Positions 1,659 through 11,044 of a stretch of DNA of 35,686 bases are shown here, one piece after another. Position numbers and translations under genes: made by a program. Source of the DNA: a virus (taxonomy: Duplodnaviria; Heunggongvirae; Uroviricota; Caudoviricetes). The stretch lies in the IMG/VR virus record IMGVR_UViG_2923302340_000008, one strand, 5' to 3'. How positions within the stretch are numbered: position 1 is the first letter of the stretch; the number at the start of each line of letters is the position of its first letter. A model generated the notes under the pieces. That model saw nothing but the letters and a program-made list of their open reading frames with translations. It was not told the origin of the DNA and searched no databases.

Positions 1659-4130
1659 TTAAGAATCAGCCTGACTCGGGATCAGTTTTTGCCAGATAAC
1701 TGAAACGTATTTTGCCTGGTAACGGGCGTCATCAAGTGCATTATGGCGCTCACCTTCGAATGGAATAGCCGTTCTGGCATCGAAGTCTATGGCTTTCCCC
1801 AGCTCAACGATTGTGCGTACATCGCGATCGTTGTAGTAACGCCACGGACAGGGGATCCCCTGCCGTTCGTATGAACGGCGCAAAATCGTGTTGTCGAAGT
1901 TGGCTCCATTTCCCCAGACCTGAACAAAAAATTCACCGGAGTTTTCGTCGATAAATTCCCGCAATTGTAACAGTGCATCATCTAACGGGATTTCATCGGT
2001 CATAATGGCAGATTGCGCTTCGCGTGATTGCTTAAGCCACCATTTAATGGTGTCCCGATCAATGACTCCGCCAGCAGTTTCCAGATCGATAGTCTTACTA
2101 AATTCCGGTCCCATATCTCCGGTTTGCGGATCGAAAAATATTGCACCTATTGAGATGATCGGGGCATCAGGATTTTTTCCCATGGTTTCAAGGTCGATCA
2201 TTAGATGGTCACACGTCCTGCTGGTGGATGTGATTTCGTGATGACCGTTCACCTTAATTGAGTGATCTGCCGTCTCGCCAGTTTCATTATCGCTATCGTG
2301 ATGCTGATTGCCGCCAGTGTTCTCCTTGTGTGGATGTTCAGCGCCTTCCATTTCCTTCGGATCATCTTCCTGAACTTCAACCTGATACTCTTCATCGAAT
2401 GTTTCCTGGTATGTTGCGTCGCCCATCACCGCGCCACAATCAGGGCAGTTGCCGCCGCCGGTCTGACCGCAGGCGGTGCAGACTTTTTCCACTTCCTGTT
2501 GCGCCACTGGTTCAGGCTGTTTCGTTTCTGGCTCGTTTTGTAACGCATTTGGGCTGTTTTGTTCCGCTTTTTGGTAGTTCCGTTCCGATTCATGCTGGTT
2601 CTGGTTCACAGAATCGCGGGTCTGGATCCCCTTAACCCATTTCGGATCATTCGGGTCACTAATCCCTTCAACAAATTCACCACGTGATGCAGCAAGCAAC
2701 TTATCGGCGTCAGGCTGGCTGATATTGGCTGCCTGCATAATTTTGTTTACTTCGTCAGCGGTAACTTTTATCGGTTCTGGTTGTTCTGAATCTTCAGCGG
2801 TATCTACATTTTGCGGTAAGCCCGTGTATGTGCCATTTTTTCGGGCAAAATATTCTTCTTTAGTGATTTCAGTGGCGCCAGCAGCCAGTGCCTTATCCAG
2901 ACCAGAAAGTTTGTTTGCGCGACCGTATTTTTCTCCGTCCTTATCTGCGAAGAGGAAATAGAACGGCCCCTCACGCTCTACAGATGGTTCAGCTTCCGGC
3001 GCGGTTTCATTTTTTGGGATATCAGATACCTCAGTTTCCACTGCATCAGTTTGTGTTTCTGATGACTGGAGAACATCAACAGTGCCCAGGTCTGTTTCTT
3101 CATTCTCAAACACGCCCTTTGTCGTCAGGTATTCAGTAATGTATTTGTTCAGTGCCACAGGGTCTTTGTGAATGTCGATCGGACGTTCACGGACAAGGCC
3201 AAAAATAGTCTGGCGGTCGTAGCGAAGGGCATCAGGCTGTTTGCGCATTGATGCCGAGATACGCTTCCAGTCTTCACGGTCGTTGTCGATAACTTCATTT
3301 TTTGCCCAGCGATGGATGCTGCCGTCAATGTTTCCGGCATCCACATCACCAGGCCAGAGAGCGTAGGCCAGTTCGTCATCCAGTGTTTTCCATGTCTGCT
3401 TGTATTCGCGATGAATGGCAGCAATGACCGGGCTGAGTTTTCCTGTTGAATTTTCAGTGTGCTGTTGATTGGCTCTGGCGCGGGCGAGATCAACAACAGA
3501 CGTGTATTTTCCGGTTTCCTTGCGTTCACCTTCGCGACGTTTTTTCCAGATGCGCATCTCTGCCTGAATTTCGGGCCATTTGGCACCTGGCTTACATTTA
3601 TGCTTAACCCACCCGATGGCATGCAGCTTAAGCTCCGGATACATGGCGTTAACTTCTGGCATTTTCATCAACGCTTCAACGATATGTCCGTCGAATGTTG
3701 CCATGTCTTCCTGCAACAGTTCCTGCGCGCTAATCACCATATCAACGGTGATGTTTTCACATGTGTCGAACTTAACCATGACAGCGTTCTGTACTTCAGG
3801 GGCCAGCTTGTCAAAAGTGACGTTTATCGGATCTGATTCAGTCTCAACCGGGACAAAGGAAGCAGACTCCTCATCCCAGCGGTTTTCCTGCATATATTCA
3901 GCATCCCAGGAATCGAGGGCAGGGCGGGGTATGTCAGGTTTATCCTCGCAGACAATAAATTTATAAGCGCAGTCCTGAGCAGCCGTATAATGTTCCAGGA
4001 ACTGCCAGTGAAATTTTGCTCGAGCACGGCGTTCGTCGCCAGCTTCAATGGCTGTGGCTACAGCCACAGCGCCTTCTTCCCTTGTTGCCAGTTCGTCAGG
4101 AATAGCGGCGCAAATAAAGACTTTACTCAT
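1659..4130 (-). CDS. Phage exonuclease with C-terminal DnaQ-like (DEDDh) 3'-5' exonuclease domain and internal Cys4 zinc ribbon
   Basis: 823-aa ORF. The C-terminus carries DLETMG…GNGANFD…HNALDDARYQAKY motifs typical of DEDDh exonucleases. A CTACGQTGGGNCPDCG zinc-ribbon lies mid-protein. A GAGG RBS lies about 10 nt upstream. It occupies the exo position of the leftward early operon. Confidence 0.75.
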   Translation of the reverse strand: MSKVFICAAIPDELATREEGAVAVATAIEAGDERRARAKFHWQFLEHYTAAQDCAYKFIVCEDKPDIPRPALDSWDAEYMQENRWDEESASFVPVETESDPINVTFDKLAPEVQNAVMVKFDTCENITVDMVISAQELLQEDMATFDGHIVEALMKMPEVNAMYPELKLHAIGWVKHKCKPGAKWPEIQAEMRIWKKRREGERKETGKYTSVVDLARARANQQHTENSTGKLSPVIAAIHREYKQTWKTLDDELAYALWPGDVDAGNIDGSIHRWAKNEVIDNDREDWKRISASMRKQPDALRYDRQTIFGLVRERPIDIHKDPVALNKYITEYLTTKGVFENEETDLGTVDVLQSSETQTDAVETEVSDIPKNETAPEAEPSVEREGPFYFLFADKDGEKYGRANKLSGLDKALAAGATEITKEEYFARKNGTYTGLPQNVDTAEDSEQPEPIKVTADEVNKIMQAANISQPDADKLLAASRGEFVEGISDPNDPKWVKGIQTRDSVNQNQHESERNYQKAEQNSPNALQNEPETKQPEPVAQQEVEKVCTACGQTGGGNCPDCGAVMGDATYQETFDEEYQVEVQEDDPKEMEGAEHPHKENTGGNQHHDSDNETGETADHSIKVNGHHEITSTSRTCDHLMIDLETMGKNPDAPIISIGAIFFDPQTGDMGPEFSKTIDLETAGGVIDRDTIKWWLKQSREAQSAIMTDEIPLDDALLQLREFIDENSGEFFVQVWGNGANFDNTILRRSYERQGIPCPWRYYNDRDVRTIVELGKAIDFDARTAIPFEGERHNALDDARYQAKYVSVIWQKLIPSQADS

Positions 4131-5102: not shown

Positions 5103-5303
5103 ATGACTAAAGAAGAATTTGTCTCTTATATTTTTGATAAAACGGTTGAAATGTATGCCGCTACTTACGGGTCCTGTAATCCTCTGAATAAACCAGAGGG
5201 GAAAGATGATTTCGACAAAATTTACCGCTTCTTGGAGGATCGCTATATCAAAAGGTTAGAGGACGCAGGGATCAAATCCCCAGTGAAGTCACCATTGTCC
5301 TGA
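5103..5303 (+). CDS. Hypothetical 66-aa protein encoded on the strand opposite to the dicB operon
   Basis: ATG preceded by a strong RBS (AAGAAGGAAAtctatATG). Codon composition is protein-like. No recognisable family. Confidence 0.4.
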   Translation: MTKEEFVSYIFDKTVEMYAATYGSCNPLNKPEGKDDFDKIYRFLEDRYIKRLEDAGIKSPVKSPLS

Positions 5304-5993: not shown

Positions 5994-6401
5994 TTATTGA
6001 TGCTTGTTGCGTTTGCGAGCCTCTAATAGCTCGGTGAACAGGCGATTAAAATTCTCAACGCGGGCGCGGAGTTCGCTGAGTTGTGCTTGTTGCTCTGATT
6101 TAGGAAGTGCGCGATACAAACGCAGCATCTCTAACTCATCTTCCGATAAGTCTAAGGCACTATCGAGTGAAACAGGGGGAGCTGGTGTTTTGTCCTCGTC
6201 GCCAAACAGTATCCAGGTTGGTGAACATTGCAATACCTCGGCGAGGCGATGCAAATTTTGCCCGCGCGGGGCTGTATGGTCACTTTCCCATAATGAAATT
6301 GATGAGCCAGATACGCCAGCAGCTTTGCTTAAACCGTTTTGACTTAAGCCTACCTGCTTACGTCTTTCTCTAATGCGTTGACCTAAAGTTTTCTCGTTCA
6401 T
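5994..6401 (-). CDS. dicA: DicA-like HTH (XRE-family) repressor
   Basis: 135-aa product from MNEKTLGQRIRERRKQVGLSQ… with an N-terminal HTH and the motif LQCSPTWILFGDEDK recalled from DicA. It is divergent from the dicC-like gene. Confidence 0.8.
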   Translation of the reverse strand: MNEKTLGQRIRERRKQVGLSQNGLSKAAGVSGSSISLWESDHTAPRGQNLHRLAEVLQCSPTWILFGDEDKTPAPPVSLDSALDLSEDELEMLRLYRALPKSEQQAQLSELRARVENFNRLFTELLEARKRNKHQ

Positions 6402-6449
6402 ATTTAGATATCTTAATAACCCTTGACTTGAGATTCCTTGAGTGATTAG

Positions 6450-6470
6450 CATTGAGAAAACTCAATATTG
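6450..6470. promoter_or_regulatory. Candidate DicA/DicC operator in the divergent intergenic region
   Basis: atTGAGAAAACTCAAtATTGG with inverted repeat TTGAG-aaaa-CTCAA. It overlaps a putative dicC promoter (TTGACT at 6423..6428) and lies just upstream of the dicC RBS. Confidence 0.5.
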
Positions 6471-6478
6471 GAGGTGCG

Positions 6479-6706
6479 ATGTTTAAATCAGACGTAATTA
6501 ATTTTTACGGTACGAAAGCCAAAGTAGCGAAAGCTGCTGGCGTTGACCCATCTGCTGTTTCTCAATGGCAAGAGCTGGTTCCTGAAGGTCGCGCGATGCG
6601 TCTACAGGAGGCATCTGGCGGCGAGCTTCTGTATGATCCCAAGGTTTATGACGAATATCGTAAGACGAAGCGGGCGGGGCGGTTGAACAATGAAAATCAC
6701 TCCTGA
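6479..6706 (+). CDS. dicC: DicC-like Cro-type regulator
   Basis: 75-aa product with C-terminus …LVPEGRAMRLQEASGGELLYDPKVYDEYRKTKRAGRLNNENHS as recalled for DicC. GGAGG RBS. Divergent from dicA. Confidence 0.75.
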   Translation: MFKSDVINFYGTKAKVAKAAGVDPSAVSQWQELVPEGRAMRLQEASGGELLYDPKVYDEYRKTKRAGRLNNENHS

Positions 6707-7211
6707 ACAGGCTCGTGAGGCTCTGGATGCTTGGATATGTCGACCAGGAATGACACAGGAGCAGGCGACGATATTAATCACTGAAGCATTCTGGGCTTTG
6801 AAAGAGCGCCCGAACATCGATGTTCAGCGTGTCACAGATGAAGGTGGCGCGGTTGATCAGCGAGCGCTTGGCGTTAATCGAGTGAAGATATTCGAACGCT
6901 GGAAGGCTATCGACACCAGGGATAAGCGTGAAAAGTTCACGGCGCTAGTGCCTGCAATTATGGAGGCTATCCGGATTAATGATTTCAGGTTGTATCGTGA
7001 AATTAGTGACGGAAAAAGCATCACGTACATGATCGCCGGGTTAAACAAAGAATATGGCGATGTGGTGGAGTCCGGACTGCTTTTTGCTGATCCTGCCGTA
7101 GTGGATCGTGAAACTGACGAACTTATAGAAAAAGCAATTGCTTTCAAACTTGCGTATCGACAGCAATACCAACAAAAAGCTGGATGGAATTATGAGCCTT
7201 CTTTTTGCTGA
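6690..7211 (+). CDS. Phage early-region protein of unknown function
   Basis: 173-aa ORF beginning inside the dicC 3' end and co-directional with it, upstream of the replication gene. No recognisable motifs. Confidence 0.5.
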   Translation: MKITPEQAREALDAWICRPGMTQEQATILITEAFWALKERPNIDVQRVTDEGGAVDQRALGVNRVKIFERWKAIDTRDKREKFTALVPAIMEAIRINDFRLYREISDGKSITYMIAGLNKEYGDVVESGLLFADPAVVDRETDELIEKAIAFKLAYRQQYQQKAGWNYEPSFC

Positions 7212-8157
7212 ACGCCCACTGGTTATAAACACACAGCTTGCGATGAAGATTGGCTTAAATGAAGCCATTGTGTTGCAGCAGTTGCATTACTGGTTGAGAG
7301 ATACCAATTCCGGCATGGAATGTGATGGTGTTCGCTGGATTTACAACACAACGGAACAATGGCTGGAACAGTTCCCATTCTGGTCAGAGTCAACGTTAAA
7401 GCGCGCGTTTGCAAGTCTGAAAACGCTGGGGCTTTTGCGTTGTGAAAAGCTCAATAAATCAAAGCGCGATATGACCAATTTCTACACGATTAACTATGGG
7501 AGCGAGCTTTTAGATGATGGCAAATTGAGCGAATCCATCGGTTCAAAATGCGCCGCTCCATCAGGTCAAAATGACACGATGGAAGAGGTCAAAATGAAAC
7601 GCTCCATTGGTTCAAAACGACCCAATGTCATCGGGTCAAAATGGCCTGATGATCTTACAGAGAATACAACAGAGATTACTACAGAGAATAAAAACACTTT
7701 TCGTCCGGAAGCTTCGCAATCGGACCCGCAGACAGCTGAACAGAATTATTTAACCCAATATCCTGACGCGGTGGTTTTCAGTGCTAAAAAACGTCAGTGG
7801 GGGAATCAGGAGGATTTGGCGTGTGCGCAATGGATCTGGGCACGAATCGTGAGCCTTTACGAACAGGCCGCCAGTGATGATGGCGAGATCATGCGACCAA
7901 AAGAGCCTAACTGGACTGCCTGGGCTAATGACGTGCGCACAATGCGGATGCTGGATGGCAGAAGCCATAAACAAATTTGCGAAATGTTTGGTCGGGTTCA
8001 GCGAGATCCATTCTGGGTAAAAAACATCATGAGCCCTTCAAAGCTCCGCGAAAAATGGGATGAACTGGTCATTCGCCTGGGGCGTTCACCTGTACAGCGT
8101 TGTGTGAATCATATTTCTGAGCCGGACAGCGAAATTCCACCGGGATTCAGGGGGTAG
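7192..8157 (+). CDS. Replication initiation / replisome-organizer-like protein with N-terminal HTH
   Basis: 321-aa product. The N-terminal region (NTQLAMKIGLNEAIVLQQLHYWL) is HTH-like. Repeated SIGSK/VIGSK peptides are encoded by an internal iteron array, analogous to ori inside lambda O. Confidence 0.65.
   Translation: MSLLFAERPLVINTQLAMKIGLNEAIVLQQLHYWLRDTNSGMECDGVRWIYNTTEQWLEQFPFWSESTLKRAFASLKTLGLLRCEKLNKSKRDMTNFYTINYGSELLDDGKLSESIGSKCAAPSGQNDTMEEVKMKRSIGSKRPNVIGSKWPDDLTENTTEITTENKNTFRPEASQSDPQTAEQNYLTQYPDAVVFSAKKRQWGNQEDLACAQWIWARIVSLYEQAASDDGEIMRPKEPNWTAWANDVRTMRMLDGRSHKQICEMFGRVQRDPFWVKNIMSPSKLREKWDELVIRLGRSPVQRCVNHISEPDSEIPPGFRG
7537..7644. repeat. Iteron array (candidate replication origin) inside the replication initiator gene
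   Basis: Five copies of a GG(T)TCAAAA(T/C)G motif spaced about 23-24 bp apart, at 7540, 7564, 7587, 7609 and 7633. Confidence 0.6.
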
Positions 8158-8159
8158 GT

Positions 8160-8372
8160 ATGCACAGCAGTAATCAACAGGCCGCAATCCAGCATTTGCT
8201 GGAGAACGGGGAAGCCACGTTCCGGGAGCTGGCTGATGCTCTTGGTGTGACCAACAAGAAAATTCAAAACCTGCTCCAGAACATACAGCGGTACGGGCAG
8301 CTTGTGCGGGAGGGGGAAAAATATCGGCTGGTACCGAACTGGCAGGAAAAATCTGCATTGCAAAAGCGGTAA
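8160..8372 (+). CDS. Small winged-helix/HTH-like protein
   Basis: 70-aa ORF with an ATG 2 bp after the replication gene stop and a G-rich RBS. Motif FRELADALGVTNKKIQNL is HTH-like. Confidence 0.5.
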   Translation: MHSSNQQAAIQHLLENGEATFRELADALGVTNKKIQNLLQNIQRYGQLVREGEKYRLVPNWQEKSALQKR

Positions 8373-8621: not shown

Positions 8622-10178
8622 ATGAATGCCTATAAATTCAGAAATAATGATGAGATTGGAAAATTAGAGGCGGAAACTGATTCTTATCTTGATGCTTGTT
8701 TTTATGAGTCCAATGTTTTTAAAGGTATTGTGAATTTTGACTCTACTGAGAAGAATCCTGATTTTACAAGAAGAATTATTGTTGGAAGAACAGGAAGCGG
8801 TAAGTCTGCGTTGCTTAAAAAAATATTAGACAAAGGAAATATTAAGCTGCATGACACAATAGAGGCAGAAAATACGATATTTGAACATATTAATAACAAT
8901 GTGTTTATATCTGATTTGATCTCGAAAGGGATAGATTTACGTGGGTTTTATAAATCGTTATGGCTGCATGTATTACTTATGAAAGTTATACCAGCCGTTT
9001 ATCGTTCTTCCTATCAAAGCTTTTTTGAGGAAATTAAAGATCTTATTGGTGGTAAGAAGAAACCGTATAAACCAGAAGTTGCGAATGATTATATTGAACA
9101 ATTTAAAGAAAATTTCTTCAATGATAAAGCGCTCATTGAAATAAGTAACAAGCTTGAAAGTGATTTGTCATTCAAACTCGGAAATTCCGCTGTTGGTGTG
9201 GGTGGTAAAATATCTAATTCTGATACAGCCAAAATACAATCAGAAACTTCAAGTTATGTGAGTCGTGAACTTCTTTTTAAACAAAAAGAACTTATTAAAA
9301 TACTTAAAGAGGAGTTCGCTGACTCAAACCAGGTTAGAATAGTAATCAGTATCGATGATTTAGATAAATCTTGGTTAAGCACGAGCGCCATCAGATATGA
9401 CTTTATTAATGCTCTTCTTGAGGCCTTTCGAGAATTATTAGATATAAAGTCGGTTAAGGTTCTGATATCAATAAGAACAGATATTTTAATGGGAATTTAT
9501 AAAAGTAGTTTAAGGCAGGATGAGAAAGATCAATCTTTAATATATTCCATATCATGGAATAAAACGGAAATAAGAGAGATTATTGATGCTAGAATTAACC
9601 ATTTGGTTAAAAATAGATATCAATCAAATAAGTCTGTATTAATGAAGGATATTTTTAATTTTACAGTTGAAGGTATTGGAGCAGATGATTATATCCTTGA
9701 CAGAACAATGCTTAGGCCTAGAGATGCAATTAATTTCGTAAATATATGTCTTTCTGAGTGCGATGGTATGGTTAACATGAATGAAAATATTGTGTTAATT
9801 GCCGAAGAGAAATTTTATTCGTCCAGAAAGAGAGCTTTGGTTACAGAATGGAAAAGCATATATCCGTTTATCGAAGAATATTTGGATGTGCTTTCCTTGA
9901 TTTCATTTTCTGATTTTACAGTCTCAAACATAGGACAAGCAGTAAAAGATGATATATCGCAGCATTTACTTGATAGATTGACTGTAGTTAAAGAGGATGA
10001 TCAACATACAAAAATATTGATGAATTTTGAGGAGTTACTTAAAGTCTGGTTCGTCGTAGGCGTGGTTGGCATAAGGAAAACAGTATCTTTAATTTTATAT
10101 TCATCTTTTGATAAACCTAATTTGGATATTACTGATATGAAGAGAGATTTTGTAATACATCCGTTGTTTGATAGGTAA
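8622..10178 (+). CDS. AT-rich P-loop NTPase of unassigned family (candidate defence or abortive-infection protein)
   Basis: 518-aa ORF. Walker A is IIVGRTGSGKSALLKKI near residue 55. Walker B-like VRIVISIDDLDKSW lies near residue 243. Candidate sensor and arginine motifs are ISIRTD and LRPRD. Base composition is markedly AT-rich versus flanks. A TATAAT hexamer sits at 8578..8583 and a GGAG RBS upstream. Confidence 0.75.
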   Translation: MNAYKFRNNDEIGKLEAETDSYLDACFYESNVFKGIVNFDSTEKNPDFTRRIIVGRTGSGKSALLKKILDKGNIKLHDTIEAENTIFEHINNNVFISDLISKGIDLRGFYKSLWLHVLLMKVIPAVYRSSYQSFFEEIKDLIGGKKKPYKPEVANDYIEQFKENFFNDKALIEISNKLESDLSFKLGNSAVGVGGKISNSDTAKIQSETSSYVSRELLFKQKELIKILKEEFADSNQVRIVISIDDLDKSWLSTSAIRYDFINALLEAFRELLDIKSVKVLISIRTDILMGIYKSSLRQDEKDQSLIYSISWNKTEIREIIDARINHLVKNRYQSNKSVLMKDIFNFTVEGIGADDYILDRTMLRPRDAINFVNICLSECDGMVNMNENIVLIAEEKFYSSRKRALVTEWKSIYPFIEEYLDVLSLISFSDFTVSNIGQAVKDDISQHLLDRLTVVKEDDQHTKILMNFEELLKVWFVVGVVGIRKTVSLILYSSFDKPNLDITDMKRDFVIHPLFDR

Positions 10179-10408
10179 TAGCAATGTGAATATGTTGAGA
10201 CTACTGGAAAAGCTATAACTCCTTTAGTAAAGTTTCCGTGGGTGCTTGAGGCTATCTGTCTCAGGCATGAACACCAAAGGCAGATAGAGAAAAGCCCCAG
10301 TTAACATTACGCGTCCTGCAAGACGCTTAACATTAATCTGAGGCCAATTTCATGCTAGACACATGTAGGTTAGCCTCTTACGTGCCGAAAGGCAAGGAGA
10401 AGCAGGCT

Positions 10409-10564
10409 ATGAAGCAGCAAAAGGCGATGTTAATCGCCCTGATCGTCATCTGTTTAACCGTCATAGTGACGGCACTGGTAACGAGGAAAGACCTTTGCGA
10501 GGTACGAATCCGAACCGGCCAGACGGAGGTCGCTGTCTTCACAGCTTACGAACCTGAGGAGTAA
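10409..10564 (+). CDS. hokD: Hok-family type I toxin (HokD/RelF-like)
   Basis: 51-aa product MKQQKAMLIALIVICLTVIVTALVTRKDLCEVRIRTGQTEVAVFTAYEPEE matches recalled Hok-family sequence. GGAGA RBS. An in-frame upstream extension from 10352 is present. Confidence 0.85.
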   Translation: MKQQKAMLIALIVICLTVIVTALVTRKDLCEVRIRTGQTEVAVFTAYEPEE

Positions 10565-10665: not shown

Positions 10666-10780
10666 AACGCGTTTGAAGTTCTGGACGGTGCCGGAATAGA
10701 ATCAAAAATACTTAAGTAGCGCGCAGGGAGAAGAGGGATGGTCCCTTAAAGGGGAGAGCTAATTATCCGGAAGGATTCTG

Positions 10781-11044
10781 ATGATGAACATGATGATGAA
10801 CATCGAAGAACTGCGTAAAAATTTTTGTGAAGATGGCCTCTATGCTGTGTGCGTTGAAAATGGAAATCTTGTTAGTCATTACCGCATTATGTGTTTGCGA
10901 AAGAATGGGGCTGCGTTAATTAATTTTGTGGATGGTCGAGTGACAGACGGATTTATCTTGCGCGAAGGTGAGTTTGTCACTTCATTACAGGCACTGAAAG
11001 AGATCGGAATAAAAGCAGGCTTTTCAGCTTTTGCAGAAGAATAA
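10781..11044 (+). CDS. Hypothetical protein
   Basis: 87-aa ORF with an AAGGA RBS and tandem Met codons. Family unknown. Confidence 0.45.
   Translation: MMNMMMNIEELRKNFCEDGLYAVCVENGNLVSHYRIMCLRKNGAALINFVDGRVTDGFILREGEFVTSLQALKEIGIKAGFSAFAEE

Follow-up and report, generated by a model that had tools for sequence, protein, structure and literature searches.

A probable iteron-type replication origin inside the initiator gene of a lambdoid prophage, and a DnaT-like tip on the encoded initiator

In the 35,686-nucleotide Caudoviricetes sequence IMGVR_UViG_2923302340_000008 of IMG/VR (in the following called the window, which denotes this whole stretch of DNA), an array of 23-bp repeats directly followed by an A-rich 12-bp tandem repeat lies in the middle of a replication initiator gene. 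Together these repeats very likely constitute an iteron-type replication origin. Taken as a whole, the locus is probably best explained as the origin of a lambdoid (Rac-like) Escherichia coli prophage which, similar to ori-lambda, is situated inside its own initiator gene, and whose initiator carries a DnaT-like tip that may make a phage loader unnecessary. The origin itself represents the known lambdoid design of an origin within the initiator gene and not a new kind.

Two repeat arrays within the initiator gene

The array consists of six in-phase 23-bp units within positions 7513–7651, which share the core GGTCAAAATG and follow each other at spacings of 23, 23, 23, 23 and 24 bp (Table 1). 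An earlier note, made from the sequence alone, had listed five copies at a spacing of roughly 23–24 bp. All five are found at the claimed places (iterons 1–5), where they display 70–100% identity to the reference copy CATCAGGTCAAAATGACACGATG, and both their start positions and the period of 23 recovered by Tandem Repeats Finder (TRF; score 71) agree with the claimed spacing. As a total, however, five is too low, since a sixth, degenerate copy precedes them in phase at 7513–7535. This copy was suspected because the best window of the self-similarity scan described below begins at 7503, and alignment of the orthologues, which have a good copy at this place, confirms it.

Counting of the core motif alone gives no striking result, as GGTCAAAATG, with one mismatch allowed, is found 8 times in the window, where 3.8 occurrences would be expected. 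Four of these eight sites, though, fall in strict phase into the array stretch of about 100 bp. When all 35.7 kb of the window were scanned for self-similarity without a preset motif (periods 9–60, self-matches counted over 92 positions), the iteron locus ranked joint first at period 23 with 58/92 matches (z = 7.4), a score reached by only 6 of 1.85 million window/period combinations. A chance origin of the repeats is therefore excluded. The same score of 58/92 was obtained at period 21 for positions 2495–2610 on the minus strand, an A-rich stretch (…CAAAAAGCGGAACAAAACAGCC…) inside an 823-residue open reading frame (ORF; 1659–4130) which encodes a large, RecE-like exonuclease; here the signal is probably due to a low-complexity coding linker.

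Each iteron is an imperfect 23-bp palindrome with a 10+3+10 layout and the consensus CATCAGGTCA-AAA-TGACCTGATG. Pooling of the six positions over ten orthologues yields sATsrGGTCAAAwTGAmCyGATs, in which two 10-nucleotide arms surround a central AAA. Within the window, arm complementarity amounts to 8/10 for iterons 2, 4 and 5 and to 5–6/10 for iterons 0, 1 and 3. As the unit length of 23 does not divide evenly into codons, every reading frame is used: the six units begin at codon positions 1, 3, 2, 1, 3 and 3, and the same DNA motif is translated as EVK/DGK (EVK(M)), GSK or SGQN depending on the frame. The repeated peptide (S/V)IGSK, which the earlier note had assigned to the array, is accordingly encoded by three copies only, with SGQN and EVK(M) in the remaining ones.

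Immediately 3' of iteron 5 lies CTTACAGAGAATACAACAGAGATTACTACAGAGAATAAAA, a region with about three copies of the purine-skewed 12-mer ACAGAGAATACA (TRF: 2.8 copies at 7657–7690, score 54). With a GC content of 0.33 it is the lowest-GC stretch, and its top strand is composed of 70% purine and 55% A. In terms of nearest-neighbour energy, positions 7654–7693 form the least stable 40-bp duplex of the gene (-45.6 kcal/mol compared to a gene mean of -55.9 with a standard deviation of 3.2), which places the segment 3.2 standard deviations below the gene mean and at the 97th percentile of the window. The adjacent AT-rich element that had been proposed for a search is thus present, and is presumed to act as DNA-unwinding element.

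The gene that harbors both repeats starts with an ATG at 7192 and stops at 8157, and near-identical phage genes are annotated with the same start. Its product matches PHROG 391 'replication initiation O-like' (1e-91) and shares 96% identity with the product of the one gene annotated for replication in phage HannyBb. In RefSeq, the protein is mostly named 'hypothetical protein', but the names 'DNA-binding protein' and 'phage replication protein O' are also found. Residues 170–294, to which the match is confined, show 35% identity with the C-terminal portion of lambda O (tblastn, 125 residues, E = 1e-16). For the assignment of domain boundaries, and for this only, Foldseek and an AlphaFold (AF2) model were used, the latter calculated from a shallow alignment and reaching a mean predicted local distance difference test score (pLDDT) of 54. 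The model comprises an N-terminal domain of helices and strands (residues 14–101), a stretch with pLDDT below 35 (109–187), a helical C-terminal domain (about 200–297) and a disordered tail (298–321). The low-confidence stretch 109–187, which is predicted to be disordered, coincides exactly with the part encoded by iterons and 12-mers. The location of the repeats inside the coding sequence of a replication protein is thereby borne out and can be specified as the linker-coding middle of an O-like initiator gene. An alignment of relatives is in line with this division: the N-domain is common up to the linker stretch, and the C-domains differ after it. Foldseek comparison with the PDB revealed weak, generic winged helix-turn-helix (wHTH) matches, including the plasmid Rep-iteron complex 5kbj (E of about 0.05), and a profile built from ten aligned sequences found no match in the PDB.

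Conservation of the repeats and comparison with known origins

The iterons and the 12-mers are under constraint at the DNA level and track the N-domain of the initiator across orthologues. Both elements are located at the equivalent place in phage mEp460_4F5 (78% nucleotide identity), in Klebsiella phage vB_VIPKPNMC05 (N-domain 72% identical at the amino acid level), in Providencia phage PSTCR8lys (N-domain 50%) and in several enterobacterial prophages. The 12-mer repeat is thus kept even where the orthologous proteins are only 50% identical. When third codon positions are compared pairwise, the mean identity is 0.55 in the N-domain, compared to 0.81 in the iteron cores, 0.73 in the iteron spacers and 0.85 in the 12-mer region. 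Initiator genes with other N-domains carry other mid-gene repeats, as exemplified by SfIV, where GTCAAAATCTGAC recurs with 15-bp spacing, and by a gene with an MSMELMVK-type N-domain, which contains the repeat GGTGCAG..ATTCACC.

A particularly telling match was provided by the 'DnaD-like' module of Staphylococcus phage P954 (gp20–gp22). The N-domain of gp20 is 46% identical to that of the window initiator, and the gp20 gene (L285, positions 2814–2935) displays CATCGGGACAAAATGGCCCGACG / ATGAGGACAAATTGGCACGATG / CAAGAGGACAAAATGACCCGACC (GGACAAAATGGCCCGA) at a spacing of 22–23 bp, giving an iteron core GGACAAAATG.CC.GA that is followed by an ACAGAGA-type A-rich stretch. In contrast, the C-terminal half of the protein differs, and P954 possesses its own loader and a DnaB-like helicase. 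The N-domain and its DNA site therefore stay linked from one phylum to another, even where the remainder of the module is exchanged. The repeats, whose absence from orthologous genes the earlier note had named as a finding that would count against an origin, are thus kept from E. coli to Staphylococcus phages.

Natural initiator variants of 290 residues were also encountered (P0017–P0023; window positions of about 7537–7629). The one that was aligned, P0020, lacks exactly 31 residues, and since 23+23+23+24 = 93 bp corresponds to 31 codons, this deletion removes four iterons in frame. It resembles the classical ori-minus deletions of lambda.

In ori-lambda, the central part of gene O contains O-binding iterons in the form of imperfect inverted repeats, flanked by an AT-rich tract that unwinds; the number of iterons is four in lambda and six in the Stx phages 933W and P27 (PMC7466680). 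The window locus shares with the lambda and Stx origins the internally dyad-symmetric iterons in the middle of the initiator gene, the A-rich region directly promoter-distal of them, the position in the interdomain linker, the O-homologous C-domain (35%), the gene order cI/cro/cII/initiator and an iteron number which varies among relatives. The likeness to the lambda origin within gene O, already proposed in the earlier note, is thus supported by the O-like gene, the linker position, the combination of palindromes with an A-rich stretch, the third-codon constraint and the co-variation with the N-domain. However, several features set the window locus apart. Its N-domain is unrelated in sequence to the Pfam O family (no match), its iterons are abutting 23-bp units with the core GGTCAAAATG instead of 19-bp units, its A-rich region is a 12-bp tandem repeat, and its initiator is not followed by a P gene and ends in a DnaT-like tip in place of the P-associated tip.

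Iteron plasmids (pPS10, R6K and pSK41 Rep) likewise combine a winged-helix initiator with tandem iterons beside an AT-rich unwinding element, and a weak likeness in fold to the Rep-iteron complex is found. Plasmid iterons, however, are located outside the rep gene, whereas those of the window are coding sequence inside the initiator ORF. Signs of handcuffing or copy control were not encountered at the window locus, although no test aimed at handcuffing was made.

A DnaT-like tip and the missing loader gene

The initiator gene is followed by a gene for a 70-residue wHTH protein (8160–8372) and then by an NTPase gene (8622–10178), and the earlier note was correct in stating that no DnaC- or P-like loader gene comes after it. 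Absence of a loader is normal for this initiator module: HannyBb, PhiR42_1, mEp460_4F5 and SfIV, all of them isolated phages, have neither a loader nor a helicase gene after that of the initiator, and the complete genome of HannyBb is annotated with no replication gene other than the O-like one.

The last 20 residues of the initiator correspond to residues 160–179 of E. coli DnaT, with 15/20 identical (75%; BLASTP, E = 4e-8), and the conserved C-terminal tail of DnaT, ...VSEPDSQIPPGFRG, is present in this tip. Nothing outside the tail aligns. The tip is also matched in the PDB chains 2ru8, 6aep and 9zbt_D, and NCBIfam model PRK02854 scores 17.3 bits against a cut-off of 201 bits, over positions 160–179 only, indicating that the protein is not a full-length DnaT. 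In DnaT, the tail has been described as a flexible 20-residue segment (PMC5778457). In contrast to DnaT, the window protein is devoid of the DnaT N-domain and of a detectable three-helix bundle and, by analogy, would be targeted by sequence-specific iterons and not by PriA/PriB.

To relate the tip to the downstream gene, IMG/VR viral contigs were scanned for two back-translated tips, [EQ]IP[PA]GFRG-stop and EAWENTL-stop. All matches to the GFRG pattern (120/120) are the C-termini of ORFs and are distributed over at least eight unrelated N-domain types; the second scan, for the P-paired tip type (...HWNSPEAWENTL), which is the counterpart of the DnaT-like tip, yielded 49 ORF C-termini. Downstream of the 75 scored GFRG loci, which have at least 2.5 kb of downstream sequence, no P-like gene was found, while 16 loci have a DnaC-like gene, 1 has another ORF with a Walker A motif and 58 have no loader. 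Downstream of the 40 scored EAWENTL loci the picture is reversed, with a P-like gene at 39, a DnaC-like gene at none and no loader at 1. The family for replication protein P, PF06992, was verified on three reference proteins. The contrast between tip and partner is pronounced (Fisher exact p = 5e-30, calculated over related loci with kinship ignored), and both tips are found on either of two C-domain types. Since at least three N-domain types carry either tip and the downstream gene switches with it, the tip behaves as a portable adaptor. A DnaC homologue from one of these phage loci (L227) has about 247 residues and is 50% identical to E. coli DnaC. As dnaC follows dnaT in E. coli, the arrangement of a GFRG-tip initiator with a DnaC homologue directly after it, seen at 16/75 phage loci, parallels the dnaT-dnaC pair.

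Based on these genomic associations, the tip may recruit the DnaB-DnaC complex by contact with either protein, with phages such as that of the window using the proteins of the host; we regard this as a possibility of somewhat less than even weight. The absence of a loader gene may then be due to the DnaT-tail copy at the end of the initiator. An initial view of the tip as an outright replacement of the loader had to be revised, since the downstream ORFs of about 247 residues in 16 loci turned out to be DnaC homologues, which a strict Walker A expression (GK[ST]) had missed because they read GKNH. Two further candidates were rejected. The downstream wHTH gene, considered as a hidden loader or partner, does not appear to be essential, as it is missing in several relatives (L004, L014), and the Sll1717 ATPase encoded further downstream is of KAP/STAND type, low in GC and present in this arrangement in only 9 genomes.

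An O-like N-terminus has already been noted to be joined to a C-terminal motif of DnaT in DopC, which together with DopE forms a domesticated O-like/P-like pair (Brezellec et al. 2017, PMC5509034) and shares with the window protein the O-like helix-turn-helix N-terminus. However, DopC is chromosomal, lacks iterons and has a P-like partner, whereas the window gene contains iterons and is not followed by a P-like gene. Some initiator-like phage proteins from IMG/VR (L171 and L184 types), read by eye, appear to carry the whole DnaT C-domain together with the tail (...PEPDSEIPPGFRG), which would suggest a common ancestry of dnaT and the phage genes. The literature searched, which did not include the main review, contains no mention of the PPGFRG motif or of 'initiator-solo' modules, and an earlier description is possible.

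Proposed initiation pathway, alternatives and neighbouring genes

By analogy to lambda O and ori-lambda, initiation might proceed as follows. Transcription from pR would yield the initiator and, by passing through the origin, activate it. Dimers of the initiator would then bind the palindromic iterons via the winged-helix N-domain, with the DNA being wrapped, and the wrapped complex would stress and open the adjacent 12-mer region. Comparative genomics suggests as a final step that the C-terminal DnaT-like tip would bring in host DnaB-DnaC, or the phage DnaC homologue where present, so that no phage loader would be needed.

Other explanations of the repeats have to be weighed against an origin. 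One is that they matter for the protein only, as a peptide recurring in a flexible linker, and have no function as DNA. Indeed, (S/V)IGSK is encoded by three copies and the linker is predicted to be disordered and thus tolerant of repeats. Yet the motif is read as GSK, SGQN and EVK in the three frames, the units are palindromes, third codon positions are far more conserved in the array than in the folded N-domain, and the DNA motif is retained between phages of E. coli and Staphylococcus whose linker peptides differ. The peptide explanation is thereby effectively refuted. It is also conceivable, although quite unlikely, that the repeats are binding sites of the initiator or another wHTH protein with a regulatory function in autorepression, copy control or exclusion of related phages, and do not mark the start of replication. 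Plasmid iterons also serve in copy control, and most relatives have a wHTH gene downstream of the initiator gene. According to two reports, cloned ori-lambda fragments inhibit related phages (PMC3349717, PMC4488673). On the other hand, an easily melted A-rich repeat is conserved right beside the array, the iterons follow the N-domain of the initiator and not the variable downstream wHTH gene, the architecture fits the experimentally defined ori-lambda, and no second candidate for an origin came to attention in the early region.

With respect to the missing loader, the window module might be degenerate in the sense that a DnaC-like loader gene was displaced by the low-GC ATPase cargo, leaving an origin which is intact but no longer self-sufficient. 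The locus L227, in which the same initiator type is directly followed by the DnaC homologue and a 256-residue gene, would fit such a displacement, as would the GC content of the ATPase gene (0.31) and the rarity of the arrangement (9 genomes). We nevertheless consider it improbable, since 58/75 loci with a GFRG tip have no loader, plaque-forming isolates with a 96% identical initiator encode no loader anywhere in the genome, and E. coli DnaC, which the host supplies, is 50% identical to the phage DnaC homologue. The partner of the tip is less clear-cut. Recruitment of DnaB-DnaC by the preprimosome is stated to be unknown (PMC11087952, PMC13377028), and no direct contact between DnaC and DnaT has been demonstrated (PMC11087952). 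Instead of binding DnaB-DnaC, the DnaT-like tip could dock on PriA (or PriB), in which case the initiator would open the origin and pass it to the restart primosome of the host. Because the N-domain of DnaT and not its tail has been proposed as recruiter of DnaB/DnaC, and because the C-terminal domain of DnaT is seen docked on PriA by cryo-electron microscopy (PMC13377028), this is a live rival, if a fairly unlikely one. It is opposed by the recurrence of phage loci in which the tip is paired with a DnaC homologue in the same order as in the dnaT-dnaC operon, and by the fact that the window protein has only the tail and not the C-domain in common with DnaT; moreover, the tail is not stated to be part of the PriA interface (PMC13377028).

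Several observations weigh against an ori-lambda-like origin that is served through a DnaT-like tip, including the roles just cited for the DnaT domains. No binding, unwinding or replication assay for this initiator family was found in the literature. In Pfam, the initiator matches no family at E <= 0.01, and its N-domain is not of the Phage_rep_O type; overall confidence of the AF2 model (mean pLDDT 54) is low. The existence of variants without four iterons may mean that the full array is not essential or that those copies are dead, and the window copy may reside in a prophage that no longer replicates. The correlation between tip and partner is not phylogenetically independent, with about three N-domain types carrying either tip and the downstream gene switching with it, and it is silent on which host protein is bound. 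Finally, the DnaT motif at the C-terminus of DopC goes along with a partner of the P-like type (PMC5509034).

The coordinates of the origin, the initiator domains and the flanking features are listed in Table 1. Upstream of the initiator gene follow, in this order, genes for a cI-like repressor (5994–6452, minus strand), a Cro protein of the P22-Cro family (6452–6706) and a cII/YdaT-like protein (6690–7211). The pR-like promoter candidate precedes cro, the cII-like gene and rep, and transcripts started there would run through the origin; scans for promoters and terminators gave scores no higher than those of shuffled sequences. DnaA boxes were not found near the array.

Table 1. Positions of the putative origin, the initiator and neighbouring features in the window.
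Feature	Position	Strand	Description
pR-like promoter candidate	6423..6452	+	upstream of cro, cII-like gene and rep; consensus match only, 9/12
Replication initiator gene, 321 aa	7192..8157	+	wHTH-like N-domain, disordered linker, lambda-O-like C-domain, DnaT-like tail
N-terminal domain, presumed iteron reader (aa 1-104)	7192..7503	+	winged-helix helix/strand pattern in AF2 model, pLDDT 60-77
Iteron 0	7513..7535	.	GATGATGGCAAATTGAGCGAATC; degenerate in window, array phase kept; orthologues have good copy (GATGAGGTCAAAGTGACC...)
Iteron 1	7536..7558	.	CATCGGTTCAAAATGCGCCGCTC
Iteron 2	7559..7581	.	CATCAGGTCAAAATGACACGATG; palindrome arms 8/10; reference copy
Iteron 3	7582..7604	.	GAAGAGGTCAAAATGAAACGCTC
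Iteron 4	7605..7627	.	CATTGGTTCAAAACGACCCAATG; arms 8/10
Iteron 5	7629..7651	.	CATCGGGTCAAAATGGCCTGATG; arms 8/10
A-rich, purine-skewed 12-bp tandem repeat	7655..7694	.	ACAGAGAATACA x ~3; presumed DNA-unwinding element
Helical C-terminal domain (aa ~190-297)	7759..8082	+	homologous to lambda O C-domain; AF2
C-terminal tip (aa 302-321)	8095..8154	+	QRCVNHISEPDSEIPPGFRG; match to E. coli DnaT tail
70-aa wHTH protein, 'ren' position	8160..8372	+	Pfam TrmB 8e-6; PHROG 142 'Ren-like' 5e-8
Cargo P-loop ATPase, 518 aa, Sll1717 family, KAP-like	8622..10178	+	NCBIfam NF047389 2e-52; Pfam KAP_NTPase 1.6e-6

The 70-residue wHTH protein is probably not part of the origin. In general, the slot right after the initiator, which corresponds to the ren position of lambda, is mostly taken by a gene for a small protein whose N-terminal part is a wHTH (70 residues in the window; DUF977, PerC-like or 256-residue proteins elsewhere). 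Examples besides the window gene (8160–8372) are found at 5299–5721 in L001, 4451–4939 in L003 and 4918–5364 in L013, and the slot is empty in some relatives. The Sll1717 ATPase gene has a GC content of 0.31 compared to 0.47 for the window. Among 5426 complete E. coli genomes, DNA similar to rep is present in 2790, while the arrangement of rep, wHTH gene and ATPase gene occurs in only 9. The ATPase displays a weak match to the anti-phage model DS41 and is probably a defence-type cargo gene. Further downstream, positions 10352–10564 contain an ORF for a 70-residue Hok/Gef-like membrane toxin, and the equivalent region of HannyBb is annotated as 'MokW-like host killing protein'. A perfect 12-bp tandem repeat of TGATGATGAACA (2.1 copies, 10779–10803) is located at the start of the next ORF (MMNMMMN...).

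Beyond the window, the tip data invite a wider and more doubtful proposal. The last 10–20 residues of lambdoid initiators could represent an exchangeable adaptor, in which HWNxxEAWENTL would direct the initiator to the lambda-P loader and IP(P/A)GFRG to DnaC-type loading by phage or host. The DnaT tail would then be the contact of the restart preprimosome with DnaB-DnaC, beside or instead of the DnaT N-domain, and dnaT-dnaC would be a domesticated phage initiator-loader pair that has lost its origin-reading domain. Such a tip code, if true, would provide a cheap and testable handle on how DnaT recruits DnaB-DnaC in replication restart, and would explain how one replication gene can suffice for many temperate phages. 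For annotation, the locus is of value since a gene related to the initiator is present in about half of the complete E. coli genomes, mostly as a 'hypothetical protein' without a Pfam domain and with its origin unannotated. The signature of iterons and 12-mers could allow origins to be called in thousands of prophages, and replication incompatibility or exclusion among them to be predicted.

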